Below are positions 2,608-59,549 of a DNA stretch of 64,000 nt, piece after piece; position 1 is the stretch's first letter; each line of letters opens with the position of its first letter. The DNA comes from Nitrospirota bacterium (GTDB lineage Bacteria; Nitrospirota; JACRHL01), in assembly GCA_029858285.1 (NCBI GenBank), contig JAOUFN010000002.1:9842-73841 (forward strand), in the 5' to 3' direction. A program made the translations under genes and the position numbers. The notes below the pieces were generated by a model, which saw only the letters and a program-made list of their open reading frames with translations, was not told the DNA's origin and searched no databases.

Positions 2608-4088
2608 GCCGCCACCGGCCACTGATCCCCCTCGTTCCCGGCGAGGTGTCCCCCTTGCGCTACCGCGTGGGCATCCTGTTGTGTGTGGCCACCATGCTGC
2701 CCACCGCAATCACCCTGGCATGGGGACAAAGCGCCGCCCCTTCCACCCAGACCCAGTTGGGCCTGACCCTGGGGCTGGCGGCGATGCTGTCCATGGCCGT
2801 CTACGGCTGGCCTTCCCTGTATATCGTGCGCACCGGGCTGCTGGCCCTGCCGGGACTGGTGTCCGGAAGTGTCCTGCTGCTGCCGGATATCAGTTCGATC
2901 AGCCCCCACGCCTTGCTGTTCCAGACCCGGCAGATGGGCGCCACCATCACCCTGCTGACCAGTCTGGCGCTGGGGGCATCGGGGGCCGCGTGGGGTCTTG
3001 GCTGTCTCACCGCGCGACCGCCCGCGCCAGCCCCCCCCCGGGAATTCCGGGTGCGGTTTGTGGCCTACCTGATACTGGCCGTGACCGCCGCCACCTGGAC
3101 CGCCCACAGCGCGGGACCGCTGATCTGGACGGCGGCGTACGTCACCCAAAAACAGAGACTGCCGCTGGGCTTGGGATCCATTCCGGCCATGATCGCCCTC
3201 GGCATTCTCGGCATGCTGGCATTTGCCTGCTTCGATCCCCGGGGAACCTCCCGGCACCGCTGGCTGGTCCTGCCGGTCGCGATCTATGCCTGCGTCTACT
3301 GTCTCTGGCTGCGGGGCGAACGCATCGAGACCCTCGGCACCCTCACCGGCGGCTATTTCATGTGGCTGCTGTACCGGCGCAGACCCGTGCGGCCCCTGTT
3401 CCTGGCTGCTGGCGCCGTGCTGATATTCGCCTTCTCCGTCAGTTGGGGCAACTACCGGATCCAGGCCACGGGGGGAACCCCGTTCCTCACATCCATCGTG
3501 TCCTCCTGGGAAGACCTGATAATAGAAACCGACGACGGGCTGGTGTCGGTGCAAGCCTCCACTTTCGGCGACATCGCGGCGACCCTGCTGAGCATGATCG
3601 GTCTGGTGGACGAAGGCGAGTTGACCCTGGTCCACGGCAAGACTTACCTGGATTTTATTCTGCGCACCCCTCCGCAGTTTCTTTACCCCGACCGGCCCGA
3701 GACCGTCGCGTGGATATTCTGGAGACACGACACCTCCACTGGCGGCGGCTTGTACGAACTGGCCGAGGCTTACTACAATTTCGGACCCGCGGGCGCCGCT
3801 CTGGTTCCGGCAATCATCAGCTTTCTGTTTGCCCGCGTTTACATGCGCGCCATCCGCCTGCGCACCCCCCTCGCCGTGCTGGCCCTGGGGCTGCTGATCG
3901 CCACCAGCTACCGCGGCATCTGGTATCAGACTTTCAATTACTACCGAATGGCGACCATCTGGCTGACGTTCGAGGCGGTTTTGATCGTGTTCACCGAGTT
4001 CAAGCGGCATGCCGCTGCTGCAACACCACTGCCGGAGCCCGAACATCCGGAACCGGCGCCGGGGCCCGCTTCCACGGGTGGTGGCTGA
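2604..4088 (+). CDS. Wzy-like polysaccharide polymerase / polytopic membrane protein
   Basis: About 10-12 hydrophobic segments, a large late loop ending in GGGLYELAEAYYNFG, position within a glycosyltransferase cluster; TTG start overlaps upstream stop. Confidence 0.65.
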   Translation: MSRHRPLIPLVPGEVSPLRYRVGILLCVATMLPTAITLAWGQSAAPSTQTQLGLTLGLAAMLSMAVYGWPSLYIVRTGLLALPGLVSGSVLLLPDISSISPHALLFQTRQMGATITLLTSLALGASGAAWGLGCLTARPPAPAPPREFRVRFVAYLILAVTAATWTAHSAGPLIWTAAYVTQKQRLPLGLGSIPAMIALGILGMLAFACFDPRGTSRHRWLVLPVAIYACVYCLWLRGERIETLGTLTGGYFMWLLYRRRPVRPLFLAAGAVLIFAFSVSWGNYRIQATGGTPFLTSIVSSWEDLIIETDDGLVSVQASTFGDIAATLLSMIGLVDEGELTLVHGKTYLDFILRTPPQFLYPDRPETVAWIFWRHDTSTGGGLYELAEAYYNFGPAGAALVPAIISFLFARVYMRAIRLRTPLAVLALGLLIATSYRGIWYQTFNYYRMATIWLTFEAVLIVFTEFKRHAAAATPLPEPEHPEPAPGPASTGGG

Positions 4089-5239
4089 TGCACGAAGAGC
4101 ACACCCATCCGGCACCCCCCAAGGAAAAAACCCCTCCGCCCGCGCCCCGGATCGTCCATTTTGTGCTGGACCACCGCCCCGGAGGGCACCATGCCTTTAT
4201 CCGCGGCCTGCGCTCCGCCCCCGCCACCCCCCCGTCCACAATGGTTACGGTGGGCAGCGGGCCGGACACCGACTTTGGCCTCACCAACCTGCGCCACCGC
4301 TGGCGCCTTGCCTTTCCCCTGGAAGTCGCGGTCAACGTGGCGCAAATCTGTCTGCTGCGCTGGCGCGGCCGGCTGGGGGGCGCGGGCACGGTGTTCCACG
4401 TCCATGGCGCCGCCAACCTGGCGCCGCTGGTGGCGGCGCGCCTGCTGCGGGTCCCCACCATATGGCAACTGCACGAAACCCTGGGCGTGCCACGCCTGCT
4501 GGCCCGGCTGGGGCAATGGGCGTTGCCCGGCGGCCCTGCGCGCATCGCCACCGTCACCCAAAAGGTGTATGCGGCGTTCGGCATCGACACCGCCACCACC
4601 GTGATGCCGCCCCTGGACACCGCTGTGTGGGTGCGCACCACCCCGCTGGGGAAAAAAACCCAGCCGCCGGTGATTCTGTCTGTCGGCAACCTGAATCCCC
4701 TGAAAGGGCAGGATGTTCTGATTGAAGCCATGGGGCAGGTTCCGGGACAATGGCGGCTGGAGCTCGTCGGCGAACCCCTCGCAACCCAGTCCGCCTACGT
4801 TCACCGCACACGCCAGATGACCGCCCGGGTCACCGGGGACAACCCACAGGGGCAGATCCACTGGGCGGGTCGGCAGGAAGGGGAACAGGTTCGGGAACGC
4901 CTCGAATGCTGTACCCTGTTCGTGCTGCCGTCCCGCAGCGAAGGGTGCCCCATCGCCCTGCTGGAGGCCATGTCGATGGGGTGTGTCTGCATTGCCACCG
5001 ACGTGGGGGAGGTGGCAAGCATGATCCGTCACGGCGTCAGCGGGTGGCTCGTCCCCCCCGCCGATCCCCGGGCGCTGGCGGATGCCATCCGCGCCGCGCT
5101 CGCGCAACCACAGGAGGACCGCACCGTCATGGCCCGCGCCGCCCGAGAATACGTACTCGAACACCACACCCCGGAGCATATCGCGCGCCAGTTGGGCGCC
5201 CTTTACAGCCAGACGCTGGCCGACAGGATGCGGGCATGA
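4088..5239 (+). CDS. Glycosyltransferase family 4
   Basis: ATG overlaps upstream TGA; VGNLNPLKGQDVLIEA and FVLPSRSEGCPIALLEAMSMG (EX7E motif). Confidence 0.88.
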   Translation: MHEEHTHPAPPKEKTPPPAPRIVHFVLDHRPGGHHAFIRGLRSAPATPPSTMVTVGSGPDTDFGLTNLRHRWRLAFPLEVAVNVAQICLLRWRGRLGGAGTVFHVHGAANLAPLVAARLLRVPTIWQLHETLGVPRLLARLGQWALPGGPARIATVTQKVYAAFGIDTATTVMPPLDTAVWVRTTPLGKKTQPPVILSVGNLNPLKGQDVLIEAMGQVPGQWRLELVGEPLATQSAYVHRTRQMTARVTGDNPQGQIHWAGRQEGEQVRERLECCTLFVLPSRSEGCPIALLEAMSMGCVCIATDVGEVASMIRHGVSGWLVPPADPRALADAIRAALAQPQEDRTVMARAAREYVLEHHTPEHIARQLGALYSQTLADRMRA

Positions 5240-31454: not shown

Positions 31455-31553
31455 ATGGGGCGGGGTGCCCCCGGCGTCACCGATGGGGCGGGGTGCCCCC
31501 GGCGTCACCGATGGGGCGGGTGCCCCCGGCGTCACCGATGGGGCGGGTGCCCC
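31455..31553. repeat. 27-28 bp tandem repeat, about 3.6 copies, overlapping the fabH stop codon
   Basis: ATGGGGCGGGGTGCCCCCGGCGTCACCG starting at 31455, 31483, 31511 (27 bp) and 31538 (partial). Confidence 0.95.
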
Positions 31554-32605: not shown

Positions 32606-32679
32606 GGGGGGATTTTAAGTTTCGCCAGCGGACTGGTCAACCGCACCGGATGAGACCGGTTAACCAGCCTCCCCCCACA

Positions 32680-32833
32680 GCGATGAAGCTGGCCGCGCCA
32701 CGGATTTTACGCGCATGCGCCGGCCCCCACCCCGCCCGCCGCGATGAATGCAGAACTGCCGTGTGTGTTAGCGAATATGCCCGGGGGGTTCCCCCGCCGC
32801 GAATATGCCTGCGGGCCCCCCCCCCGCCCGCCG
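32680..32833 (-). repeat. Short degenerate array of the REP-like family found at 53.5-57 kb
   Basis: GCGATGAAGCTGGCCGCGCCACGGATTTTACGCG plus GCGAATA motifs, directly after the lpxC stop. Confidence 0.85.
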
Positions 32834-34054: not shown

Positions 34055-34549
34055 ATGAACGAATCGGCCCAACAGATCCCCGACAGCGGACAACTCGGCA
34101 CCCTGCCCCTGATCCACATTCTCGAGCATTTTGTGGACAAGGGGGTGACCGGCACCCTGGCGGTGCATCAGGACGCGGTGGTCAAGGCGATTTTTCTGCG
34201 CGACGGCGAGGTGGTGTTTGCCACCTCCACCAAGAAGATGGATCGTCTGGGCGAAGTGCTGGTGCGCACCGGGGTGATTTCGGCCTCGGCCCACGATGCC
34301 GCCACCAAGTCCATGCAGCAGAGCGGCAAACGCGAGGGGGAAACCCTGGTGGACATGGGCATCCTCACCCCCAAGGGGCTGTTCGAGGCCCTCAAGGTGC
34401 AGGTGGAGGAGATCATCCTCTCCATGTTCTTGTGGGATCAGGGCAAGTATCAGTTCATGCCGGGACGTCTGCCGGCCCACGTGGTGCCCCTGCCGGTGCG
34501 CATGGACCAGCTTCTGCCCCGCGCCCTGGACCGATTGGGCGGTCAGTAG
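34055..34549 (+). CDS. Stand-alone DUF4388 (PatA-N-like) protein
   Basis: GQLGTLPLIHIL, TGTLAV, IFLRDGEVVFA, RLGEVLV, FLWDQGKYQF. Confidence 0.8.
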   Translation: MNESAQQIPDSGQLGTLPLIHILEHFVDKGVTGTLAVHQDAVVKAIFLRDGEVVFATSTKKMDRLGEVLVRTGVISASAHDAATKSMQQSGKREGETLVDMGILTPKGLFEALKVQVEEIILSMFLWDQGKYQFMPGRLPAHVVPLPVRMDQLLPRALDRLGGQ

Positions 34550-34655
34550 GCATCGCCCGATTGGGCGGTCAGCAGGCATCGCCCGATTGGGCGGTCAGCA
34601 GGCATCGCCCGATTGGGCGGTCAGCAGGCATCGCCCGATTGGGCGGTCAGCAGGC
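34531..34655. repeat. 26-bp tandem repeat, about 4.8 copies
   Basis: CCGATTGGGCGGTCAG(T/C)AGGCATCGC starting at 34531, 34557, 34583, 34609, 34635. Confidence 0.97.
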
Positions 34656-34716
34656 GCCCCGCCGCCCCCCCCGGGACAACACGAACAGGCCGCACCAATC
34701 CCCGGCCCCCCGGTTT

Positions 34717-48026: not shown

Positions 48027-48821
48027 ATGTCGCCCCGCAAGCAACAATCCTCCGCCCCCCATATCGGCGTGGTTGGCGATTTCAATCCGGGTACTCCGCC
48101 CGGCAACATGGAGCGCTTTGGCGGCGACGAGGCCCACCACTTTCTGAACGCCCGCTACACCCGGGCGGTGCGCGACGCCGGGGGCATTCCGTGGCTGCTG
48201 CCGACCCCGGTGGACCCCGCCGACGCGGAGCGTTTTGCGGAAATCCACCTGGAGCGTCTGGACGGCCTGCTGATGACCGGCTGCGGCCGCCACCTGGACC
48301 CCGCCGCCTACGGCGAGTTGCCGCGCTTCGACCTGAACCTGATGGCCCCCGCCAAGCAGCGCTTCGAGGAGGCACTGGTGCGGGCCACCCGTGCGCGCCA
48401 GATGCCGGTGCTGGCCATTTGCGGCGGCATGCAGACCGCCAACGCGGTGCTGGGGGGAACCCTCGTCCAGCGCATCGGCGCCGAGGTGCCGGGGGCCCTG
48501 GAGCACATGCAGGAAACCAAGGCCATCCACACCGTGCACGATGTAACGGTGACCCCCGGCAGCCGCCTGGCGCGCATCACCGGCGCCAGCACCTTTGCCA
48601 CCAACTCTTCCCACACCCAGGCGGTGGGGCGGCCGGGGAACGGACTGACCGTCACCGCCCGCACCACCGACGGCGTGGCGGAGGCCTATGAATCCGCGGA
48701 CGGCTACCTGATCGGCCTGCAATGGCACCCGGAATACCTGTACCCGGAACACCCCGGCCAGGCCGCACTGTTCCTGGCCCTGATCCGCGCCGCCACGAGC
48801 GGCGGCCCGCTGGGGGGCTAG
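48027..48821 (+). CDS. Peptidase C26 / gamma-glutamyl-gamma-aminobutyrate hydrolase family
   Basis: DGLLMTG, AICGGMQ (Cys nucleophile), NSSHTQAV, QWHPE. Confidence 0.88.
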   Translation: MSPRKQQSSAPHIGVVGDFNPGTPPGNMERFGGDEAHHFLNARYTRAVRDAGGIPWLLPTPVDPADAERFAEIHLERLDGLLMTGCGRHLDPAAYGELPRFDLNLMAPAKQRFEEALVRATRARQMPVLAICGGMQTANAVLGGTLVQRIGAEVPGALEHMQETKAIHTVHDVTVTPGSRLARITGASTFATNSSHTQAVGRPGNGLTVTARTTDGVAEAYESADGYLIGLQWHPEYLYPEHPGQAALFLALIRAATSGGPLGG

Positions 48822-50209
48822 CGCCGCCCTCCGGACTTTGGCCCCGATCTGGATCCCGGCTTCGGCCCCGGCTTCGGACCGGGACCACCGCTGCCGCCGC
48901 GACCTCCCCGTGGGGGAGGGCCACCGGCATCCCGGTCACGACGCGGCGGGCCGCTTCGACCGGCACGATCAGGACGGTCGGCCCGGTCGGTGGGGCCAGT
49001 CCGATCCGTGCGTTCGGGGCGGGTCACCCGGCGGCCACCACGCCCCTCCTCGGCAAATCGCCCGTGCGGACGCCCCTCCGGTTCCTCCCGCCGGTTGCGG
49101 ATGCGCCCCCGTGGAGGCGGTCCGGCGTCCCGGTCACGCGGATCCCGGTCACGCGGATCCCGGTCACGCGGATCCCGGTCACGCGGATCCCGGTCGCGCG
49201 GGTCCCGGTCGCGCGGGTCCCGGTCGCGCGGGTCCCGGTCGCGCGGGTCCCGGTCGCGCGGGTCCCGGTCGCGCGGGTCCCGGTCGCGCGGGTCCCGGTC
49301 ACGCGGATCCCGGTCGCGCGGGTCCCGGTCATAAAACTCCCGCCGGGGCGACTCCTGCCTGAACTCTTCCCGCCGCCGGGCCGGGCGACGCGGGGGCCGC
49401 TGGGTCGGCTCGGCCTTTGCCGCCCGTTCCGCCAACGCCGCCCGCTCCGCCCGCGCCGAGCGTTTGACCACCGGTGTCGGTTCCGCCACCGGCTTTTCCG
49501 CGTCGGGGACCGGAATGGGCCGCCGCCCCTTTTCCTTGTACATGATGAACAGGTAGTTGAAGCCGCGCAGCAGGTAATTGCCCTCCACCGCCGAGGTGTG
49601 CCAGTGGTTGCGCATCAGGGTGCGGTTGTGGCGGCACACCGCCACAATGTCCACCGGCGTGAAATGCCGGCACAGCGCCCCGAACAGCTTGAAGCCGATG
49701 GCCTCGAACGGCTTGCCCAGTTCAAAGGAATCGCTCACGTACAGGGCCATGAAGCGCTCCGGGCGCAGGACGCGGTCCATGTCGGCGATGGCCGCCTCCA
49801 TGGCCGGATAGTAGGCGTCGCCCCGGGCGTCCAGTTCGCCGATGCAGTCGGGGCGGCCCGAGTAGCGCACGTGGTTCGAATAGGGCGGGTCCACGAACAC
49901 AAAGTCGGCCTTGGCGTCCTCCAGGGGCAATTTGCGCGCGTCGGCGCGAAAGATGTCGGGGCGGGAGGGGGCCACGTCGTACCCCAGGGCGCGGCGGTCC
50001 ATCTGGCGCGCCACATCCAGTGTGGTGCCGCTGCCGCACATGGGGTCCACCACCAGTTGTCCGGGGCGGGTGTAGCGCGCCAGCAGGTTGGCGATCAGGT
50101 AACTGGGGGTGGAGCCAACGTAGGCATTGTCCCCCTGCCCCCCCTCGCCGTGGGTGCGCGACGCATAGTCCCACAAGGTGGTGGTCATTACCGGCAGATC
50201 GCCGTCCAT
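48818..50209 (-). CDS. SAM-dependent amino-methyltransferase (DPPY type) with a long Arg/Asp-rich low-complexity tail
   Basis: VVDPMCGSGTT (motif I) precedes FVFVDPPY (motif IV); (DRDPR)13 tail; start approximate. Confidence 0.82.
   Translation of the reverse strand: MDGDLPVMTTTLWDYASRTHGEGGQGDNAYVGSTPSYLIANLLARYTRPGQLVVDPMCGSGTTLDVARQMDRRALGYDVAPSRPDIFRADARKLPLEDAKADFVFVDPPYSNHVRYSGRPDCIGELDARGDAYYPAMEAAIADMDRVLRPERFMALYVSDSFELGKPFEAIGFKLFGALCRHFTPVDIVAVCRHNRTLMRNHWHTSAVEGNYLLRGFNYLFIMYKEKGRRPIPVPDAEKPVAEPTPVVKRSARAERAALAERAAKAEPTQRPPRRPARRREEFRQESPRREFYDRDPRDRDPRDRDPRDRDPRDRDPRDRDPRDRDPRDRDPRDRDPRDRDPRDRDPRDRDPRDRDPRDRDAGPPPRGRIRNRREEPEGRPHGRFAEEGRGGRRVTRPERTDRTGPTDRADRPDRAGRSGPPRRDRDAGGPPPRGGRGGSGGPGPKPGPKPGSRSGPKSGGRR
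49126..49330. repeat. 15-bp coding tandem repeat, about 13.7 copies, encoding DRDPR
   Basis: G(A/G)TCCCGGTC(A/G)CGCG repeated; variation confined to synonymous positions on the minus strand. Confidence 0.98.
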
Positions 50210-50475
50210 GATAAAGCGAATTTCCCTGGTCACGGTGCTCCGTTGTCCATCTCCGTTGTCCATCTCCACGCCCTGGCCACCCCCCGTCCACACCCGGACG
50301 GAAGCGCGGACATTTGCGGAAATCGCGATTGCGGGTAAAGTATCGCGAGCCGGTCACGCATGCCGACACACGCCGGTAATTGTACGGCAGGTCGGACGCA
50401 AGGTGACGCCGGAAGCGGAATCCATCACGGGACGGGGACACGGGATGGGGTTGCGGTGCGCGGCGAACGTGCAAG

Positions 50476-50534
50476 CGGTTCATGGCAACGGTTCATGGCA
50501 ACGGTTCATGGCAACGGTTCATGGCAACGGTTCA
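50476..50534 (+). repeat. 13-bp tandem repeat, 4.5 copies, immediately upstream of the pntA RBS
   Basis: CGGTTCATGGCAA starting at 50476, 50489, 50502, 50515, plus CGGTTCA. Confidence 0.97.
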
Positions 50535-50551
50535 CGGGAGGGGATTCAGGC

Positions 50552-51670
50552 ATGAAAATCGGCATACCCAAAGAGACCGCCCCCGGCGAGCGGCGCGTGG
50601 CCGCCACGCCCGACAGCGTCAAGCAGGCGGTGGGCAAGGGGCTCACCCTGCTGGTGGAACAGGGCGCGGGCACCGGCGCCGCCTATCCGGACGCCGCCTA
50701 CGCCAAAGCCGGTGCGCAGGTGGTGGACGCCGCCACCCTGTACCGCGACGCCGACGTGGTGTTCCGCGTGCAGCCGCCCAACGACGCGGAACTGGGGCAA
50801 CTGCGCTCCGGCACCGTGCTGATCGGCATGCTGTCTCCCCTCACCACCCCGGAGCGGGTGCCCCTTTACGCCCAAAAGGGCATCGCCGCCCTGGCCCTGG
50901 AACTGCTGCCGCGCATCACCCGCGCCCAAAGCATGGACGTGCTCTCGTCCCAGAGCAACATCGCAGGCTACAAGGCGGTGCTGCTGGCGGCGCACCACTA
51001 CGGGCGCATGTTCCCCATGATGATGACCGCCGCCGGCACGGTCACCCCGGCCAAGGTGCTGGTGCTGGGGGGCGGCGTGGCCGGATTGCAAGCCATCGCC
51101 ACCGCCCGGCGGCTGGGGGCGGTACCCACCGGCTACGACGTGCGCCCCGAGGTGCGCGAGCAGGTGGAAAGTCTGGGCGGCCGTTTTATCGCCGTGGAAC
51201 GCGAGGCCGCCACCGGCGCCACCGTGTATGCCAGCGAAATGGGTGACGACTACAAGGAAAAGGAGCGCGCCCTGCTCGCCACCCACGTGCCCCAGAGCGA
51301 CGTGGTCATCAGCACCGCCCTGATCCCCGGCCGCCCCGCGCCGCGCCTGGTGGACGAAGAGATGGTGCGCGGCATGCGCCCCGGTTCGGTGGTGGTGGAC
51401 CTGGCCGCCGCTTCCGGCGGCAACTGCGCCCTGAGCGTGGCCGATCAGGTGATCGAGCATCACGGCGTGACCATCCTCGGCCCCACCAATCTGGCGGCCC
51501 AGGTGCCCACCGACTCCAGCCACCTGTTCGCCCGCAACCTGATGACGTTCCTGCTGCCGCTCCTGGACAAGGAGGGCAAGCTCACCCTGAATACCGACGA
51601 CGAGGTCGTGGCCGGGTGCCTGCTCACCCGCGACGGCCAGGTGGTCCACCCGCGTTTCAAGGCCGGTTGA
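50552..51670 (+). CDS. pntAA: NAD(P) transhydrogenase subunit alpha, part 1
   Basis: [58 protein letters not shown]. Confidence 0.96.
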
Positions 51671-51692: not shown

Positions 51693-52046
51693 ATGAGTGC
51701 TTTTTCCGAAAATCTTGCCCGGTTGACCCACGACGTGCCCGCCGCCGTCCCCCACGGTGCCCTGCCGTCGGCGTTCGTGATCGGTCTGACCGTGTTCGTG
51801 CTGGCGGTGTTCGTCGGCTACCACGTGGTGTGGAAGGTCACCCCGGCCCTGCACACTCCGCTGATGAGCGTCACCAACGCCATCAGCGCGGTGATCATCG
51901 TGGGCGCGCTGCTGGCCGCCGGACCTCATGAACTCAGTCTGGCCACGGTGCTGGGGCTGGTGGCGGTGGCCCTGGCCAGCGTCAACATGTTTGGCGGCTT
52001 TCTGGTCACCCAGCGCATGCTTGAAATGTTCAAGAAAAAGAAGTAG
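51693..52046 (+). CDS. pntAB: NAD(P) transhydrogenase subunit alpha, part 2
   Basis: [31 protein letters not shown]. Confidence 0.96.
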
Positions 52047-52122
52047 GCCCGTCCCGCCGTTCTTTCCCCATTTTCATCCACGGCCCGATAACCCCGATCA
52101 TCGGCAGCGGAGGTTTTTTTTC

Positions 52123-53514
52123 GTGTCCCAGAACGCCACCAGCCTTGCATACCTGACCGCCTCGGTCCTGTTCATCCTGTCCCTCAAGGGGCTGTCGTCC
52201 CCGGAAACCGCCCGGCGCGGCAACCTTGCGGGGATGCTGGGCATGGCCATCGCGGTGATCACCACCCTGCTCACTCCGGGTGTGGTCGGGTACGGCCCAA
52301 TCCTCGCCATGCTGGTGCTGGGCGGCACCATCGGCGCCGTGGTGGCGCGGCGCATTCCCATGACTTCCATGCCGGAACTGGTGGCGGCCATGCACTCCCT
52401 GGTGGGTCTGGCTGCGGTGCTGATCGCCGTGGCGGCCTACCTGAACCCCCATGAATACGGCATCGCCCTGCCTGGCGGCGGCATCGCCACCGGCAGCCTG
52501 GTGGAGATGGTGGTCGGCGCCTTTGTCGGCGCCATCACCTTCACCGGTTCGGTGGTGGCCTTCGGCAAGCTAAAGGGGACTTTTGGCAGCAACCCGTTGA
52601 TGTTCCATGGCCAGCACTTGCTGAACCTGCTGCTGGGGCTGACCATGGTCGGCACCACCATCTGGTTCTGCACCCACCCCTCTCTGGCCCCGTTTCTGGT
52701 GGTCATTGCCCTGGCGCTGGCGCTGGGGGTGCTGCTGATCATCCCCATCGGCGGCGCCGACATGCCGGTGATCGTCTCCATGCTCAACTCGTACTCCGGG
52801 TGGGCGGCGGCGGGCATCGGTTTTACCCTGGGCAACCACCTGCTGATCATCACCGGGGCGCTGGTGGGCAGTTCCGGCGCCATCCTGTCGTACATCATGT
52901 GCAAGGCCATGAACCGCTCCATCTGGAACGTGCTGTTCGGCGGCTTCGGCGCCGAGGTTGCCCCCAGCGCCCAGCAGGCCGCCGCCAGCAAGGGCGCCAA
53001 GAGCGGCAGCCCGGAGGACGCGGCGTTTTTGATGAAGAACGCCAGCAGCGTGATCATCATCCCCGGCTACGGCATGGCCGTGGGGCGCGCCCAGCACGCG
53101 GTAAAGGAAATGGCCGAACTGCTCGGCGAGGCCGGAGTCAAGGTGCGCTTTGCCATTCACCCGGTGGCGGGCCGCATGCCCGGCCACATGAACGTGCTGC
53201 TGGCAGAGGCCGAAGTACCCTATGACCAGGTGTTCGAAATGGAGGAGATCAATCGCGAATTCGTGGACTGCGACGTGGCGCTGGTGATCGGCGCCAACGA
53301 CGTGGTCAACCCCCTGGCGCGCACCGACCCCTCCAGCCCCATCCACGGCATGCCGATTCTGGACGCGGACCGCGCCAAGACGGTGATGGTGGTCAAACGC
53401 AGCCTGGCCCCCGGCTACGCGGGCATCGACAACCCCCTGTTCTACGCCGACAACACCCTGATGCTGTTCGGCGACGCCAAGCACATCGCCGAAGCCATCG
53501 TCCACTCCCTCTAG
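52123..53514 (+). CDS. pntB: NAD(P) transhydrogenase subunit beta
   Basis: GTG after CGGAGG; MPELVAAMHSLVG, SMLNSYSGW, PGYGMAV, HPVAGRMPGHMN, GANDVVNP, FGDAK. Confidence 0.97.
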   Translation: MSQNATSLAYLTASVLFILSLKGLSSPETARRGNLAGMLGMAIAVITTLLTPGVVGYGPILAMLVLGGTIGAVVARRIPMTSMPELVAAMHSLVGLAAVLIAVAAYLNPHEYGIALPGGGIATGSLVEMVVGAFVGAITFTGSVVAFGKLKGTFGSNPLMFHGQHLLNLLLGLTMVGTTIWFCTHPSLAPFLVVIALALALGVLLIIPIGGADMPVIVSMLNSYSGWAAAGIGFTLGNHLLIITGALVGSSGAILSYIMCKAMNRSIWNVLFGGFGAEVAPSAQQAAASKGAKSGSPEDAAFLMKNASSVIIIPGYGMAVGRAQHAVKEMAELLGEAGVKVRFAIHPVAGRMPGHMNVLLAEAEVPYDQVFEMEEINREFVDCDVALVIGANDVVNPLARTDPSSPIHGMPILDADRAKTVMVVKRSLAPGYAGIDNPLFYADNTLMLFGDAKHIAEAIVHSL

Positions 53515-54530
53515 CCGGGGAGCCCCCACGGGCGTATTCGCGGCGGGCACGGCCCGCAGCGGTATTCGCGTAAAACCCAGGGGGGGACGCCCCCCGGCGA
53601 TATTCGCGCAAAACCCGTGGCGCGGCCAGCTTCATCGCGAAACAATCCGCGCCTTTTTCTTCCGCTTTTTCCGTCCCCCTGCCAGTGTCACCGATCGACG
53701 ACAAACCATACGTGACGGCTATTCCAGCCGGTCTCACGTGGGACAAATCTAATCCATCACTTTCCGCATCACGTGCCGTGCGCACAGCACCTCCCTTTCC
53801 TCCCCATTGGGGGGGCGGGCACGGCCCGCAGCGGTATTCGCGCAAAACCCGTGGCGCGGCCAGCTTCATCGCGGCCGGGGAGCCCCGGCGGGCCTATTCG
53901 CGTAAAACCCGTGGCGCGGCCAGCTTCATCGCGAAACAATCCGCGCCTTTTTCTTCCGCTTTTTCCGTTCCCCTGCCAGTGTCACCGATCGACGACAAAC
54001 TATACGTGACGGCTATTCCAGCCGGTCTCACGCGGGACAAATCTAATCCATCACTTTCCGCATCACGTGCCGTGCGCACAGCACCTCCCTTTCCTCCCCA
54101 TTGGGGGGGGAAAGGGCTGGGGATAGGGGGGGCCGGAATTGACGTGGGAGGCAACCCGGACACGGGGGTGCTGGATCGCCGCCCCTTCTGCGCCCCCCGT
54201 CACGGCCCCGTTCATCGCGGCCGGGGAGCCCCGGCGGGCGGCGGGCACGGCCCGCAGCGGTATTCGCGTAAAACCCGTGGCGCGGCCAGCTTCATCGCGA
54301 ACCGGGCCGCGTCTTTTCTTCCGCCCCCCGCAAGGGCAACGCAAGGGGCTGAACGCCGCTTCTGCGCCCTTGAAAGGGTCTTTCGCCAATGCGGTGGGGA
54401 CGGGGGCGAAAACCGCATATTCGCCCCCTGAAAGGGCCGCAATCGGTTTTGCCCCTGCGGCGGGCACGGCTCGTTTCGCGATGAACGCGGACCCACCACG
54501 GGTTTTACGCGAATACCGCCGGGAACCCCG
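53512..54530 (+). repeat. Left modular REP/REPIN-like array containing two copies of a long conserved core
   Basis: 39-bp unit TATTCGCGYAAAACCCGTGGCGCGGCCAGCTTCATCGCG at 53601, 53835, 53895, 54261 (inverted variant near 54475); long modules 53601-53815 and 53895-54155; small GC hairpins between. Confidence 0.95.
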
Positions 54531-54583
54531 CCACCCGCCACTGCTGCTGGACACGTTCGGGTGTGCTCGCATAGGATTGGGCG

Positions 54584-55156
54584 ATGCGGTCCCTGTACCC
54601 CACCCCCCCCCTTCGACCGCGCCGGGCACCCGTCTGGCTGAGCGCGGGGCTGGGCCTTCTGCTGGCGGGATGCAGCGGCTGGCAGCCGGTGACGGATCCC
54701 TCCCGCACCCTGTCCAGCGACCATTACGGCTCCAGCCAGTTGGCCGGCTCCCTGATGGTCACCGTGCGCCTGGTGGGATGGCGCGAACCGGCTCCCTCCC
54801 GCTTGCAGGAGTACGTAACACCCATCTACCTTCAGGTACGTAACGGCGGCGCGGCCACCGCACATTTTTCCCCCGAGGACGTGGTGCTGGTGGACGACGA
54901 GGGGACGCTCTTTCGGGCCATTTCTCCGGAGCGGCTGGAGGCGCTGGTGGGCGGTCGGGGCGGCGCCGAGTTTCAGGGCGCCGGGGGGGATGACCTGGGC
55001 GCCACCCTGGCGGCGCTGACCGCCGGAGACATTACCCCCAACACCCAGGTGCGGGGTGCGGTCTATTTTGCCCGTGGCGCCGCTTTCACCCGCACCATGA
55101 CGGTACGGGTGCCGGTGCAGGGCGAAACCCTCGAATTCCGGTTCCGTGCCCGCTGA
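54584..55156 (+). CDS. Hypothetical lipoprotein
   Basis: Lipobox LLLAG-C; beta-rich mature domain; stop overlaps the ppx start. Confidence 0.75.
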   Translation: MRSLYPTPPLRPRRAPVWLSAGLGLLLAGCSGWQPVTDPSRTLSSDHYGSSQLAGSLMVTVRLVGWREPAPSRLQEYVTPIYLQVRNGGAATAHFSPEDVVLVDDEGTLFRAISPERLEALVGGRGGAEFQGAGGDDLGATLAALTAGDITPNTQVRGAVYFARGAAFTRTMTVRVPVQGETLEFRFRAR

Positions 55157-56108
55157 TCTGATCCGCCTTACCCCTCCACGCAGTGGCCGGGTGGCGGCGG
55201 TGGACGTGGGCACCAACACCATCCGCCTGCTGGTGGCGGAGGTGGACGAGCGCAACGCCATCCGCGTGGAGGTGTCGGGCCGCGCCATGGCCCGGTTGGG
55301 AGAGGGGCTGGCGGCCAGCGGCAAACTGTCGCCCGCAGCCATGGAGCGCGCCCTGCGCACCCTGGGGGAATTTGCCGGACAGATTCGCGACGCCGCCCCG
55401 CAAGGAGTGGTGGCCGCCGCCACCAGCGCGGTGCGCGAGGCCGAAAACGGCGCGGAATTCGTCGATCGGGTGCGGCGCGAGACCGGCCTGCAACTGAACA
55501 TCATCTCCGGCGAGGAGGAAGCCCGCCTTACCGCACTGGGGGCCGCCTCGGTGCTGAACGGCGATGTGCGCAACCTGCTCATCGTGGACATCGGCGGCGG
55601 CAGCACCGAATTCATTCTGATCCGCTCCGGGGAGCAACGGGCGCGGGTTTCCACCACCATGGGGGTGGTCACCGGCAGCGAACGTTTTTTGCGCTCCGAC
55701 CCACCCCACGCGGCAGAGCTGTACGATCTGGACGAGTTCATCCGCGACCACATGCGCCGCGTGCGCGCGGAACTGGGCGAGGTGGGGCAGGTGCGGCTGG
55801 TGGCCACTGCCGGAACCCCCACCACCCTGGCCGCCATGGACCAGCAAATGGCCGAGTACGATCCGGCGCGCATCAACAACCATGTGTTGCCCCTGGCGCG
55901 GGTGGAAGAGATGTTCGACCACATCGTACGCGCCCCCATCGCCGAACGCTCCCGCATGATCGGCATCGAGCCGGGCCGCGAGGAGCTGATGGTGGTGGGC
56001 TGCTGCATCCTGCTTCGGGTGATGCACGATTTCCAGTTCGGCGCCGTGGCCGTGAGCGATTACGGCCTGCGCGAAGGGCTGGCCCTCGACCTCTTCCATC
56101 GCCTCTGA
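55146..56108 (+). CDS. ppx: Ppx/GppA family phosphatase (short form)
   Basis: AVDVGTNTIRL, ARLGEG, ATSAVREAENG, ISGEEEA, DIGGGSTE, YGLREG. Confidence 0.92.
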   Translation: MPADLIRLTPPRSGRVAAVDVGTNTIRLLVAEVDERNAIRVEVSGRAMARLGEGLAASGKLSPAAMERALRTLGEFAGQIRDAAPQGVVAAATSAVREAENGAEFVDRVRRETGLQLNIISGEEEARLTALGAASVLNGDVRNLLIVDIGGGSTEFILIRSGEQRARVSTTMGVVTGSERFLRSDPPHAAELYDLDEFIRDHMRRVRAELGEVGQVRLVATAGTPTTLAAMDQQMAEYDPARINNHVLPLARVEEMFDHIVRAPIAERSRMIGIEPGREELMVVGCCILLRVMHDFQFGAVAVSDYGLREGLALDLFHRL

Positions 56109-56968
56109 CCGGCGGAGGGCGCCCCCCGGCGGAATTTGTGGAGGGCAGAGCCGGGGCGCTCCCCGGCCCGGCACCCCCACGCCCGCGTTGCCTCCCACGT
56201 CGATTCCGGCCCCCCCTATCCCCAGCCCTTTCCCCCCCCAATGGGGAGGAAAGGGAGGTGCTGTGCGCACGGCACGTGATGCGGAAAGTGATGGATTAGA
56301 TTTGTCCCGCGTGAGACCGGCTGGAATAGCCGTCACGTATGGTTTGTCGTCGAGCGGTGACACTGGCAGGGGGACGGAAGAAAACGGAAGAAAAGACGCG
56401 GCCAGATTCGCGATGGACGGGGCCGCGCCATATGTTTTACGCGAATATGCCCGCCGGGGCTCCCCGGCCCCGTACCCCCGTTTCCGCGTTGCCTCCCACG
56501 TCGATTCCGGCCCCCCCTATCCCCAGCCCTTTCCCCCCCAACGGGGGGGAAAGGGAGGTGCTGTGCGCACGGCACGTGATGCGGAAAGTGACTGATCGGA
56601 TTTGTCCCGCGTGGGACCGGCTGGAATAGCCGTCACGTATAGTTTGTCGTCGATCGGTGACACTGGCAGGGGGACGGAAAAAGCGGAAGAAAAAGGCGCG
56701 GCCGGATTCGCGATGGACGGGGCCGTGCCACGGGTTTTACGCGAATACCGCTGCGGGCCGTGCCCGCCGCCTGCCGGGGCTCCCCGGCCGCGATGAAGCT
56801 GGCCGCGCCACGGGTTTTGCGCGAATACCGCCGGGGGGCGTCCCCCCCTGGGTTTTACGCGAATACGCCCGCCGGGGCTCCCCGGCCGCGATGGACGGGG
56901 CCGTGCCACGGGTTTTACGCGAATACCGCTGCGGGCCGTGCCCGCCGCCCGCCGGGGCTTCCCGGCTA
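56109..56968 (-). repeat. Right modular REP/REPIN-like array, inverted relative to the left array
   Basis: Long modules 56187-56447 and 56488-56748 (301-bp period); 39-bp units near 56408, 56708, 56790, 56888; terminal GGGGCTTCCCGGCTA. Confidence 0.95.
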
Positions 56969-56975
56969 TGCCCCC

Positions 56976-59549
56976 TTAACCGATGGCGCCCCAACTGAGA
57001 TGATCGCGCCAGCGTTCGGCCACGGTGCGGCGCAGGGGGGCGTGATGGGGGCGGGACAGATCGGGATCGGCGGCCAGCAGGGTGACGGCGGCCTGTCTGG
57101 CTTCGGCCAGCAGGGGGGCATCCTTGATGAGATTGGCCACCTTGAGCTCCGGCAAACCCGACTGGCGACGCCCGAACAATTCACCGGGGCCGCGAATTTC
57201 CAGATCGCGCTCGGCGATGACAAAGCCGTCTTCGGATTCCACCACGGCCTTGAGGCGTGCGCGCCCGTCGCGAGACACCGCGTGGGACGCCACCAGCAGG
57301 CACTCCCCCTGCCAGGCGCCGCGCCCCACCCGGCCGCGCAACTGATGCAACTGGGACAGGCCAAAACGCTCGGCGTGCTCCACCACCATCACGGTGGCTT
57401 CGGCCACATCCACGCCCACCTCCACCACTGTGGTGGTGACCAGCACCTGGATCTTTCCGGCGGCAAAATCGGCCATGATGCGGCTCTTGTCGTCGCTGCC
57501 CATGCGCCCGTGCAGCAGGGTCAGGGACAGTCCGGCCAACGCGCCGTGCTGCAATTCCTCAATGGCCCCGGTGGCGGCGCGCAGGTCGGATTTTTCCGAC
57601 TCCTCCACCAGCGGATGCACCACATAGGCGCGCCGCCCCTTTTCCACCGCGCGCCGCAGGCGGGCGTAAACCTGCTCCCGGTGGGTAGCGGAATAGAGGC
57701 GGGTGCGCACCGGGGAACGGCCCGGCGGCAACTGGTCGATCACCGACAGGTCCAGGTCGCCGTAGACGGTCATGGCCAGACTGCGGGGGATGGGGGTGGC
57801 GGTCATGGTCAGGGTGTGGGGAAACAACCCCTTGGCGCCGATCTGGGCCCGCTGGCGCACACCGAACCGATGTTGCTCGTCCACCACGGCCACCCCCAGC
57901 CGATGGAAGGCGACCTTTTCCTGAATCAGCGCCTGGGTACCGACCACCATGGGCACACTGCCGTCGGCCACGGCGGCGAGGGTGGCGGCGCGACCGGCGC
58001 GGGCGCCGCCGGTGAGCAGCACGATGGGCACCCCGAGTGGCGCCAGCAGCGCCCCCAGCTTGCGATAATGCTGCTCGGCGAGCACCTCGGTGGGGGCCAT
58101 CAACGCCCCCTGAAAGCCGTTGTCCACCGCCCGCAGCAGGGCCATCAGCGCCACCACCGTCTTGCCGCACCCCACATCGCCCTGCACCAGCCGGTGCATG
58201 GGGGTGTCTCGCGACAGGTCCCTGAAAATCTCCGCCAGTACCCGCTCCTGGGCGGCGGTGAGGGCAAATGGCAGGGTTTCGCGCAGGCGCGTCTCCAGCG
58301 CACCGGGGCGGTCGGCCAGGAGCACCCGCGTATGGCGACGGCGCACCGTCTGGCGGCGCAGTCCCAGCCCCACCTGCAGGCAAAAAAACTCTTCGAAGGC
58401 AAAGCGCCGGGTGGCCAGGGTGGCGTCCGCCAGCCGCGCCGGGCGGTGCACGTCGCGGAACGCCTGGCTGCGTTCCGGCAGGCCGAGGGTTGCACGCAGA
58501 TCCGCCGGCAGGGGGTCTTCCAGGCGCACGGCCTCCAGGGCTTTGGCCACCCAGGTGCGCAACTGGCGGGAGGTGAGCCCCTCGGTGACCGGGTAGACCG
58601 CCACCACCCGGCCGGTATGGAGTTTTTCCTCGCCGGATTCCCACGGTTCACACTCCGGGTTCTCCAGCACCGGCCCTCCCGTGAAGCGGTCGAACACCAC
58701 GCGGCCGGAGAACAGGTACTGGTTTCCGGTCTGGATGCGGCGTGCCTGAAACGGCTGGTTGAACCAGCGCGCCACCACCATCCCGCCCAGCGGGGAGCCG
58801 TCGCTGATGGCGGCCTCGAAGATGCGCATGCGGCGGCGCGGCGTGGTCTTGAGTTCCGTGTCCACCACCGTGCCGCGCACCGTGGCGGCGCTGCCGTGGG
58901 ACAGTTCCGACACGTTCTGGATGTGGCTGCGATCCTCGTAGCGGGACGGCAGATGCAGCAACAGGTCCTCGATGCTGCGGATGCCCAGCCGTTCCAGCAG
59001 CAGGGCGCGGCGCTCGCCGACCCCCGGCAGGTAACGCACCGGGCTGTCGGTGCCCAGCACCTCGGGCGCCTTGTCGGCGGCGGGCGCCGGATGCGAGAGC
59101 ACGGTGGCGGACGGGACGGCGGACCCGGCGGCGACCTTGGGGCTGGATTTGGGGCCGGATTTGGGGGCAGACCGGGGGACAGAGGCAGCGGCGGACGCGG
59201 CGGCGATCTGCGTTCCGGCGCCAGACGCCTCCGCCACGGCACAGATGCCGTCCAGCACCGCCTTCAGGCAGGTGCGGCGGGCGGCGGCGTCCTGGCTGTC
59301 CCATGTGGACAGGGCGTCCAGCCATGCGGCGGCGCGAGCGTGTTCTGCGCTGCCCCCGGGAAAGGTCTCGCGCCACGCGCCGAGCCTGGCGCGCACCAGA
59401 TCGGCCAGCCCGCGGATACGGTCGAGGGGGGCGCCGGTGCGGGTGGCAAAGGTAAGGGGGCCGATCAGGTCCGCCAGCGGTCCAGGGACCGAGGCGCTAC
59501 CAGGGGAAGTGGCGGGGCCAGTGCCGGGTTTGGCGGTGGGACGTTTCAC
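56976..59549 (-). CDS. recG: ATP-dependent DNA helicase RecG with a Pro/Ala-rich N-terminal extension
   Basis: QGDVGCGKT, APTEVLAEQH, VDEQHRFG, MTATPIPR, LSQLHQLRGRVGRG, RGPGE; start approximate. Confidence 0.95.
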   Translation of the reverse strand: MKRPTAKPGTGPATSPGSASVPGPLADLIGPLTFATRTGAPLDRIRGLADLVRARLGAWRETFPGGSAEHARAAAWLDALSTWDSQDAAARRTCLKAVLDGICAVAEASGAGTQIAAASAAASVPRSAPKSGPKSSPKVAAGSAVPSATVLSHPAPAADKAPEVLGTDSPVRYLPGVGERRALLLERLGIRSIEDLLLHLPSRYEDRSHIQNVSELSHGSAATVRGTVVDTELKTTPRRRMRIFEAAISDGSPLGGMVVARWFNQPFQARRIQTGNQYLFSGRVVFDRFTGGPVLENPECEPWESGEEKLHTGRVVAVYPVTEGLTSRQLRTWVAKALEAVRLEDPLPADLRATLGLPERSQAFRDVHRPARLADATLATRRFAFEEFFCLQVGLGLRRQTVRRRHTRVLLADRPGALETRLRETLPFALTAAQERVLAEIFRDLSRDTPMHRLVQGDVGCGKTVVALMALLRAVDNGFQGALMAPTEVLAEQHYRKLGALLAPLGVPIVLLTGGARAGRAATLAAVADGSVPMVVGTQALIQEKVAFHRLGVAVVDEQHRFGVRQRAQIGAKGLFPHTLTMTATPIPRSLAMTVYGDLDLSVIDQLPPGRSPVRTRLYSATHREQVYARLRRAVEKGRRAYVVHPLVEESEKSDLRAATGAIEELQHGALAGLSLTLLHGRMGSDDKSRIMADFAAGKIQVLVTTTVVEVGVDVAEATVMVVEHAERFGLSQLHQLRGRVGRGAWQGECLLVASHAVSRDGRARLKAVVESEDGFVIAERDLEIRGPGELFGRRQSGLPELKVANLIKDAPLLAEARQAAVTLLAADPDLSRPHHAPLRRTVAERWRDHLSWGAIG

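Follow-up and report, generated by a model that had tools for sequence, protein, structure and literature searches.

The window analysed here, a 64,000-nucleotide (nt) stretch of contig JAOUFN010000002.1 from a Nitrospirota bacterium, holds a lipoprotein gene and a ppx/gppA-family phosphatase gene (ppx) that lie between pntB and recG and are bracketed by two long arrays of a modular repeat. We found that a 1.57-kb unit consisting of a predicted promoter, the lipoprotein gene and ppx is inverted in this assembly relative to the ancestral arrangement, in which recG, the lipoprotein gene and ppx are read in one direction and face a convergent pntB. An in-place inversion of this unit by homologous recombination between two arrays of a dispersed repeat family is in our judgement the probable explanation, and the case is one of ordinary repeat-mediated inversion rather than of a mobile cassette. 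The coordinates of the features are collected in Table 1.

Gene order in the window and in relatives

Homologues of the phosphatase Ppx place the organism among the Leptospirillia-like Nitrospirota. As comparison set we used the loci of four relatives (L017, L019, L020 and L022), compared by tblastn; their Ppx proteins are 62-74% identical to that of the window, the upper value belonging to the closest relative. In L017, L019 and L020 the genes follow each other as thiolase, ECH/3HCDH, ADH, Usp, (L28), recG(+), lipoprotein(+) and ppx(+), and after ppx come pntB(-), pntA2(-), pntA(-), GATase(-), Aldedh(-), Ldh(-) and FAD-oxidase(+), while L022 keeps recG-lipoprotein-ppx. The window reads pntB(+), array, lipoprotein(+), ppx(+), array, recG(-). 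Its flanking genes have the same order and orientation as in the relatives on both sides, and lipoprotein-ppx alone is reversed. The spacers of the relatives measure 44-58 nt between recG and the lipoprotein gene and 10 and 45 nt between ppx and pntB (L017 and L020), and no repeat module was detected in the four loci.

The initial annotation had proposed a comparison of the pntB-recG interval, reasoning that relatives with the same gene order and no repeats, together with reads that show no inversion, would point to independent local expansions of repetitive extragenic palindrome (REP)-like repeats. The relatives do carry the cassette without repeats, but in the opposite orientation. The idea of local expansions holds insofar as each array starts at or near the stop codon of its outer gene and runs along its transcription.

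Judged from the alignments, the lipoprotein gene and ppx are native genes at their ancestral location, since their orthologues in the relatives are the recG-X-ppx neighbours: the lipoprotein of the relatives has 187-190 aa, is encoded between recG and ppx and is 42-48% identical to that of the window, and Ppx shows the identities given above. The lipobox cysteine (Cys30) is invariant in an alignment of five homologues, and the ppx start overlaps the lipoprotein stop by 11 nt, likewise in L020 and L022. One homologue search had returned the lipoprotein query alone, but tblastn and alignment rule out that the gene is an orphan; the empty result is due to the limits of a word-based prefilter.

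The promoter-like sequence TGGACA-N18-TAGGAT is the only sigma-70-like site in 53300-57200, and the 43 nt in which it lies (54541-54583) are unique and have stayed with the lipoprotein-ppx cassette. A -10-like motif, TAGGAT or TACGAT, is found 6-7 nt before the lipoprotein start in the window and in each of the four relatives, and the L017 spacer shares TGGACA as well. As the -10-like motif is conserved beside the start codon in all five lineages, the comparison points to a separate promoter for lipoprotein-ppx and to an mRNA that is leaderless or nearly so, also in genomes where recG lies immediately upstream. In the window, the spacer that ancestrally separated recG from the lipoprotein gene has been divided: 7 nt stay at the recG stop, and the TGGACA/TAGGAT promoter is now 2.4 kb away, beside the left array. 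An operon-like recG-lipoprotein-ppx arrangement, conserved across the clade, is broken here by the flip of one self-contained transcription unit.

The inverted arrays and the proposed recombination

The left array (53512-54540, + polarity) is 1029 nt long and the right array (56109-56968, - polarity) 860 nt, in agreement with the sizes of about 1.0 and 0.86 kb given by the initial annotation, which was also correct in that the two arrays consist of shared modules, oppositely oriented. A repeat search of the window linked the two by 39 inverted pairs with an arm-to-arm identity of 86-93%. The longest pair joins 53870-54174 to 56168-56472 (305 nt, 90% identity); others are 53876-54131 against 56511-56766 (256 nt, 86%), 53580-53815 against 56533-56768 (236 nt, 89%) and 53544-53639 against 56789-56884 (96 nt, 91%), the last being the mirroring of 53512-53640 in 56790-56890 that had been noticed before. 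Exact inverted matches extend to 138 nt (54002-54139 against 56203-56340), and further exact runs are 76 and 60 nt. The modules are a short unit, S, and the longer B, C and D. A 20-mer from S has 12 matches in the window where shuffled sequence gives an expectation of 0.02, and a 31-mer from B has 4 where 0 are expected; these counts are so far above expectation that a chance origin of the arrays is excluded.

It should be noted that the 138-nt run is not a recent conversion tract, as every 'type I' B copy, one at another locus among them, has exactly this sequence. Between the left and right arms the B copies are 89-93% identical; they match copies elsewhere at up to 96-97%. Being as close or closer to other loci, they indicate that the arms are not recent duplicates of one another, which counts against an origin by replicative transposition and against a composite transposon.

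The inversion probably came about as follows. Of the two arrays, one starts at the pntB stop codon and one 7 nt past the recG stop. Each array points along the transcription of its gene and the two genes are convergent, so that the arrays are imperfect inverted repeats of about 0.9-1.0 kb; the arrays are mutually inverted because each follows the direction of its outer gene, and no duplication event is needed. Recombination of the RecA type between the arrays would then have inverted the 1.57-kb promoter-lipoprotein-ppx unit. The flip was probably nearly neutral for expression, as the unit carries its own predicted near-leaderless promoter. RecA-dependent recombination in E. coli needs roughly 25-30 bp, and the exact runs of 138, 76 and 60 nt are well above this. 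Collinear flanks, a reversed interior and inverted homology at both breakpoints are all found, with the orientation taken from a single assembly.

The initial annotation saw two possible natures for the locus, a non-autonomous composite element and a recombination-invertible segment. In the first, the arrays would serve as the ends of a transposon with lipoprotein-ppx as cargo. The outer ends do match at 14 of 15 nt, as described (TAGCCGGGGAGCCCC at 53512-53526; GGGGCTTCCCGGCTA at 56954-56968, reverse complement TAGCCGGGAAGCCCC), each has a terminal TA, and in metagenomes the cassette contig assembles apart from its flanks. The left TA, however, belongs to the TAG stop codon of pntB (53512-53514), which forms the first three bases of the left array, and contigs that break at the repeats account for the cassette being assembled on its own. 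The genes are native and in all four relatives lie between the same neighbours, the modules are dispersed after unrelated genes, and the arms are no closer to each other than to other loci. The arrays are non-coding, and the previous statement that the window lacks a transposase stands for the 45 window open reading frames (ORFs) scanned against Pfam: none has a transposase, RAYT, invertase or recombinase domain, four candidate ORFs lying outside the scan. The composite element is on these grounds not borne out, and we regard a transposon of this kind as extremely improbable.

Further, a dedicated site-specific recombinase might flip the cassette at short sites within the arms and so regulate lipoprotein-ppx or its neighbours. 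Such a programmed switch would agree with a discrete promoter-bearing unit between inverted repeats whose orientation differs from that of the relatives, and it is very unlikely all the same. No resolvase/invertase or tyrosine-recombinase domain occurs in the scanned ORFs, the arms are long imperfect mosaics of dispersed repeats and not short dedicated sites, and the predicted internal promoter would drive the internal genes either way, so flipping has no obvious on/off effect. Hin, Gin and Fim switches and shufflons likewise have a discrete segment between inverted repeats with an orientation that differs between genomes. Unlike these, the present locus has no recombinase domain in the scanned ORFs, has imperfect arms of about 1 kb, and has a promoter that serves genes inside the segment.

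Several observations weigh against recombination between the arrays as the explanation, or against the orientation on which it depends. Recombination across arms that are about 10% divergent is normally suppressed by mismatch repair. No intermediate genome, with arrays present and the cassette uninverted, was found, the closest relative being only 74% identical in Ppx. The orientation in the window rests on one assembly. In a second assembly (ENA ERZ27296335, k141) contig L001 reproduces 53989-56628 at 99.7% but reaches neither pntB nor recG, and the B copy at its left end equals a copy from another locus. The pntB-side contig of that assembly, L024, agrees with the window only up to 53639, and the recG-side contig, L026 (k141_180898), only up to 56887. 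The links across 53640-53988 and 56629-56886 are without independent confirmation. Past 56887, L026 continues through S-B-C into a pentapeptide-repeat-like gene with 15-nt repeats (L026 12664-13181) that is absent from the window. The conflicts of both contigs may be chimeric short-read joins or real structural variation. Their tails are not the flipped orientation, as they do not match the junctions predicted for it. Look-ups by way of pntA2 and recG led to contigs that stop within the arrays or diverge there, and two look-ups by way of ppx found no record.

These observations bear most directly on an assembly artefact, in which the true orientation would be the ancestral one and the segment was reversed between its inverted repeats, or repeat copies were mis-joined. 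The orientation of a segment between inverted repeats is classically ambiguous in assemblies, three independent short-read contigs stop within the arrays or diverge there, and the arrays share stretches that are 93-100% identical with other loci. On the other hand about 10% of positions differ between the arms and no exact inverted run exceeds 138 nt, which means that 150-nt reads or k=141 can separate them; L001, assembled at k141, spans both copies of this run with the inner arrangement of the window; and the divergent L024 and L026 do not show ancestral junctions either. We therefore consider an artefact unlikely. Recombination between the arrays, as the preferred reading, is supported by the assemblies as a putative historical event only, and ongoing flipping finds no support in them. 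Of the recombination-invertible segment in the initial annotation, the inversion in place thus stands as a historical event, given four relatives with the opposite orientation and no repeats.

A dispersed family of mosaic repeats

The S unit is about 60 nt and consists of a GC hairpin of 15-16 nt, for which GCCGGGGAGCCCCGGC, GCGGGCACGGCCCGC and GGGGGGGACGCCCCCC are interchangeable, and a conserved tail of about 45 nt (GG-TATTCGCG-YAAAACCCGTGGCGCGGCCAGC-TTCATCGCG); truncated half units also occur. The S units are interspersed with longer modules, of which B has 176 nt and occurs twice in each arm, C has about 60-107 nt and D has 177 nt. From outer to inner end the left arm reads S-head, half-S, S, B, S, S, B, C, hairpin, S, D, inverted S, and the right arm S, half-S, S, S, B, C', S, B, C'', with a degenerate inverted S-head right after the ppx stop. 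The S units run head-to-tail inside each arm, and an inverted S marks the inner end of each whole arm. By the module map and an nhmmer S profile, seven S units of the left arm are on the + strand and one on the - strand; in the right arm five are on the - strand, plus one degenerate head on the + strand. Inside each arm a stretch of about 294-300 nt is duplicated in tandem (300 nt and 91% identity in the right arm), and module D is bracketed by S(+) at 54237-54309 and S(-) at 54467-54539, which are complementary at 78% over 73 nt. A MITE would be a small non-autonomous unit with terminal inverted repeats and a target-site duplication; the relatives diverge too far for such a duplication, or an empty site, to be defined here. 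The idea that the modules form a structured RNA was dropped, as S, B and C fold no more stably than shuffled sequence (z from -0.8 to +0.65). Rfam gave no match in the arrays at gathering scores, and a permissive scan gave one meaningless match (E=0.5).

According to nhmmer, S units occur in three intergenic regions of the window. Two of these are large and coincide exactly with the inversion junctions; the third is a cluster that starts at the TAG stop of lpxC near 32.7 kb and shows that S is dispersed. A scan of metagenome contigs with the exact S 20-mer gave 12 matches in total, of which nine are on contigs of one Joint Genome Institute (JGI) metagenome, Ga0224495. The other three (L013, L014 and L016) are chance matches inside unrelated coding sequence, and in a genome-contig collection without the source genome the 20-mer found only a chance match, in Alteromonas. 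On the nine Ga0224495 contigs S, B, C and D are combined in various ways outside called ORFs, and several of these contigs end inside the repeats. Their arrays lie downstream of genes for hisS, a PAS histidine kinase, an ankyrin/Sel1-repeat protein and a dihaem cytochrome c and of an NMO gene, among others, the NMO gene being convergent with a response-regulator gene. Among 20 ORFs scanned against Pfam beside arrays at other loci there was no transposase, RAYT or invertase, and those that matched were ordinary chromosomal genes. S, B, C and D make up a family of mosaic repeats that is specific to the lineage, non-coding and dispersed over intergenic regions.

The visible array heads are found at, or within a few tens of nt of, the end of the upstream ORF and point with that gene. 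We surveyed the heads at 53512, 56968 and 32836 of the window and those on contigs L008, L009, L011, L012 and L015. In eight of 12 the head is directly preceded by TAG (YTAG or GTAG), usually as a stop codon; TAG accounts for 17 of the 45 stop codons of the window (38%). The recG gene ends in TAA, and the TAG before the first hairpin of the right array is a separate one. Internal S units have GCGG or GGCG where GTAG would stand. The TAG before the heads could reflect a target preference 3' of TAG or a mere tolerance of insertions at gene ends.

This placement also bears on whether the arrays took part in the inversion at all. The segment might have turned by another route, such as illegitimate recombination or template switching during replication, with the arrays arriving or expanding later and independently at the two new junctions and having no causal role. 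As arrays of the family settle right after the stop codons of many genes and along their transcription, arrays after pntB and recG would be expected regardless of the cassette, and the two arms are not each other's closest relatives. However, with only three intergenic regions in 64 kb that hold S units, the two large ones stand exactly at the junctions, and an inversion mediated by recombination is characteristically marked by long inverted homology at its two breakpoints. We find an inversion by such another route quite unlikely, and prefer recombination between the arrays.

Further, one may speculate that the mosaics are active, undescribed directional elements that insert 3' of stop codons, preferably TAG, grow head-to-tail with swappable hairpins and are moved by a single-strand enzyme of the RAYT or IS200/IS605 kind. 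Lipoprotein-ppx would then be a reversible, recombinase-free flip-flop that is polymorphic in nature, and the assembly conflicts would be real variation. As a whole this picture seems rather improbable to us.

One Ga0224495 contig, L012 (Ga0224495_10013339, 4187 bp), holds a unique segment of about 3 kb between inverted arrays of the same family, (-) at 4-232 and (+) at 3511-4187. The heads face inward to the segment, and none of four ORFs scanned had a Pfam match.

Related systems, feature coordinates and neighbouring repeats

The family is reminiscent of the REPs and bacterial interspersed mosaic elements (BIMEs) of Proteobacteria such as E. coli, Pseudomonas, Xanthomonas and Stenotrophomonas (Nunvar et al. 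2010, PMC2817692; Ton-Hoang et al. 2012, PMC3333891). A REP unit is an imperfect palindrome of 20-40 nt with a conserved 5' GT[AG]G, the REPs of a BIME alternate in orientation at regular spacing, and a REP-bearing genome has a cognate RAYT (Y1 transposase). In common are short GC-rich hairpin units, an extragenic location dispersed over many loci, mosaic clusters, the position at gene 3' ends and a cluster length that varies from one strain or assembly to another. The differences are that S units are arranged head-to-tail in the arm and do not alternate; that each unit has a conserved non-palindromic tail of about 45 nt and an interchangeable hairpin in three variants; that no conserved GT[AG]G is found beside internal units; that long modules (B of 176 nt and D of 177 nt) are part of the mosaics; and that the host is a Leptospirillia-like Nitrospirota, unlike the Proteobacterial hosts of REP/BIME.

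In Neisseria gonorrhoeae, blocks inverted between strains have Correia repeat enclosed elements (CREE) and IS-like repeats at their breakpoints and have been attributed to homologous recombination (Spencer-Smith et al. 2012, PMC3454330). The present locus shares with these an inverted block with dispersed non-autonomous repeats at the breakpoints. Here, however, the block is only about 1.6 kb with two genes, the repeats are mosaic arrays of about 1 kb instead of single elements of about 100-150 bp, and the comparison is with distant relatives (62-74% protein identity) and not with strains of one species.

A third parallel are the mycobacterial interspersed repetitive units (MIRUs), which Supply and colleagues reportedly described in 1997 as units of 40-100 nt in direct tandem intergenic arrays, oriented with transcription and placed at or over stop codons. 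The arrays described here are likewise head-to-tail, oriented with transcription and abutting stop codons. Unlike MIRUs, which are one-unit variable-number tandem repeats inside operons, they have several module types and hairpins, and no small overlapping ORFs are evident.

We found no description of such elements for the Leptospirillia-like lineage in the literature searched. The analysis documents in this uncultivated lineage a REP/BIME-like mosaic family with head-to-tail units, interchangeable hairpins and starts at stop codons, and it gives a small-scale case of dispersed intergenic repeats that reshape gene order. Because short-read metagenome assemblies become fragmented and scrambled at the arrays, gene order near them in metagenome-assembled genomes should be read with caution.

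Table 1. Features of the pntB-recG interval and the third S cluster, in window coordinates
Feature	Position	Strand	Basis or remark
pntB (NAD(P) transhydrogenase beta)	51928-53514	+	Pfam PF02233, E=2.9e-194; 84% identical to L017 pntB
Left array, S-head a	53512-53542	+	sequence, repeat search, module blast map, nhmmer S profile
Left array, half-S b	53543-53579	+	as S-head a
Left array, S c	53580-53639	+	as S-head a
Left array, B1	53640-53815	+	as S-head a
Left array, S d	53816-53874	+	as S-head a
Left array, S e	53875-53933	+	as S-head a
Left array, B2	53934-54111	+	as S-head a
Left array, C	54112-54218		
Left array, hairpin f	54219-54239		
Left array, S g	54240-54299		
Left array, D	54300-54476		
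Left array, inverted S	54477-54539		
Promoter-like TGGACA-N18-TAGGAT	54548-54577	+	ends 7 nt before lipoprotein ATG (near-leaderless)
Lipoprotein gene, 190 aa	54584-55156	+	lipobox LLAGC; no Pfam family
ppx/gppA-family phosphatase gene	55146-56108	+	Pfam PF02541, E=5.7e-61; homologues 62-74% identical
Right array, degenerate S-head	56109-56136	+	directly 3' of ppx stop
Right array, C''	56168-56232	-	sequence, repeats, blast map, nhmmer
Right array, B4	56233-56408	-	as C''
Right array, S	56409-56468	-	as C''
Right array, C'	56469-56532	-	as C''
Right array, B3	56533-56708	-	
Right array, S	56709-56788	-	
Right array, S	56789-56848	-	
Right array, half-S	56850-56886	-	
Right array, S plus head	56887-56968	-	
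recG	56976-59549	-	Pfam RecG_wedge, DEAD, Helicase_C, RecG_dom3_C
Third S cluster, three S units	32672-32830	-	between lpxC and fabH; nhmmer E=4e-10 and 5.5e-5

Of the outer genes, recG is convergent with ppx, and 7 nt separate its TAA stop from the right-array head; its 857-aa product corresponds to the gene call in two independent assemblies. On the other side pntA was confirmed by Pfam. Between the GATase gene and pntA an ORF for an N6/N4 DNA methylase (48818-50353, - strand) looks like an insertion, as L017, L019 and L020 have no gene at this position. Within this ORF a 15-nt unit (GTCCCGGTCRCGCGG) is repeated in tandem about 15 times, at 49082-49390. Just upstream of the conserved part of pntA, 5-6 copies of a 13-nt tandem repeat (CGGTTCATGGCAA) are found at 50463-50552. 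As 13 is not a multiple of 3, this repeat is probably in the pntA leader or promoter region, and its length could be variable. Two further intergenic tandem repeats are unrelated to S, B, C and D, one of 26 nt in five copies after a DUF4388 gene (34505-34660) and one of 27/28 nt in three copies after a HisKA-domain gene (31458-31547).

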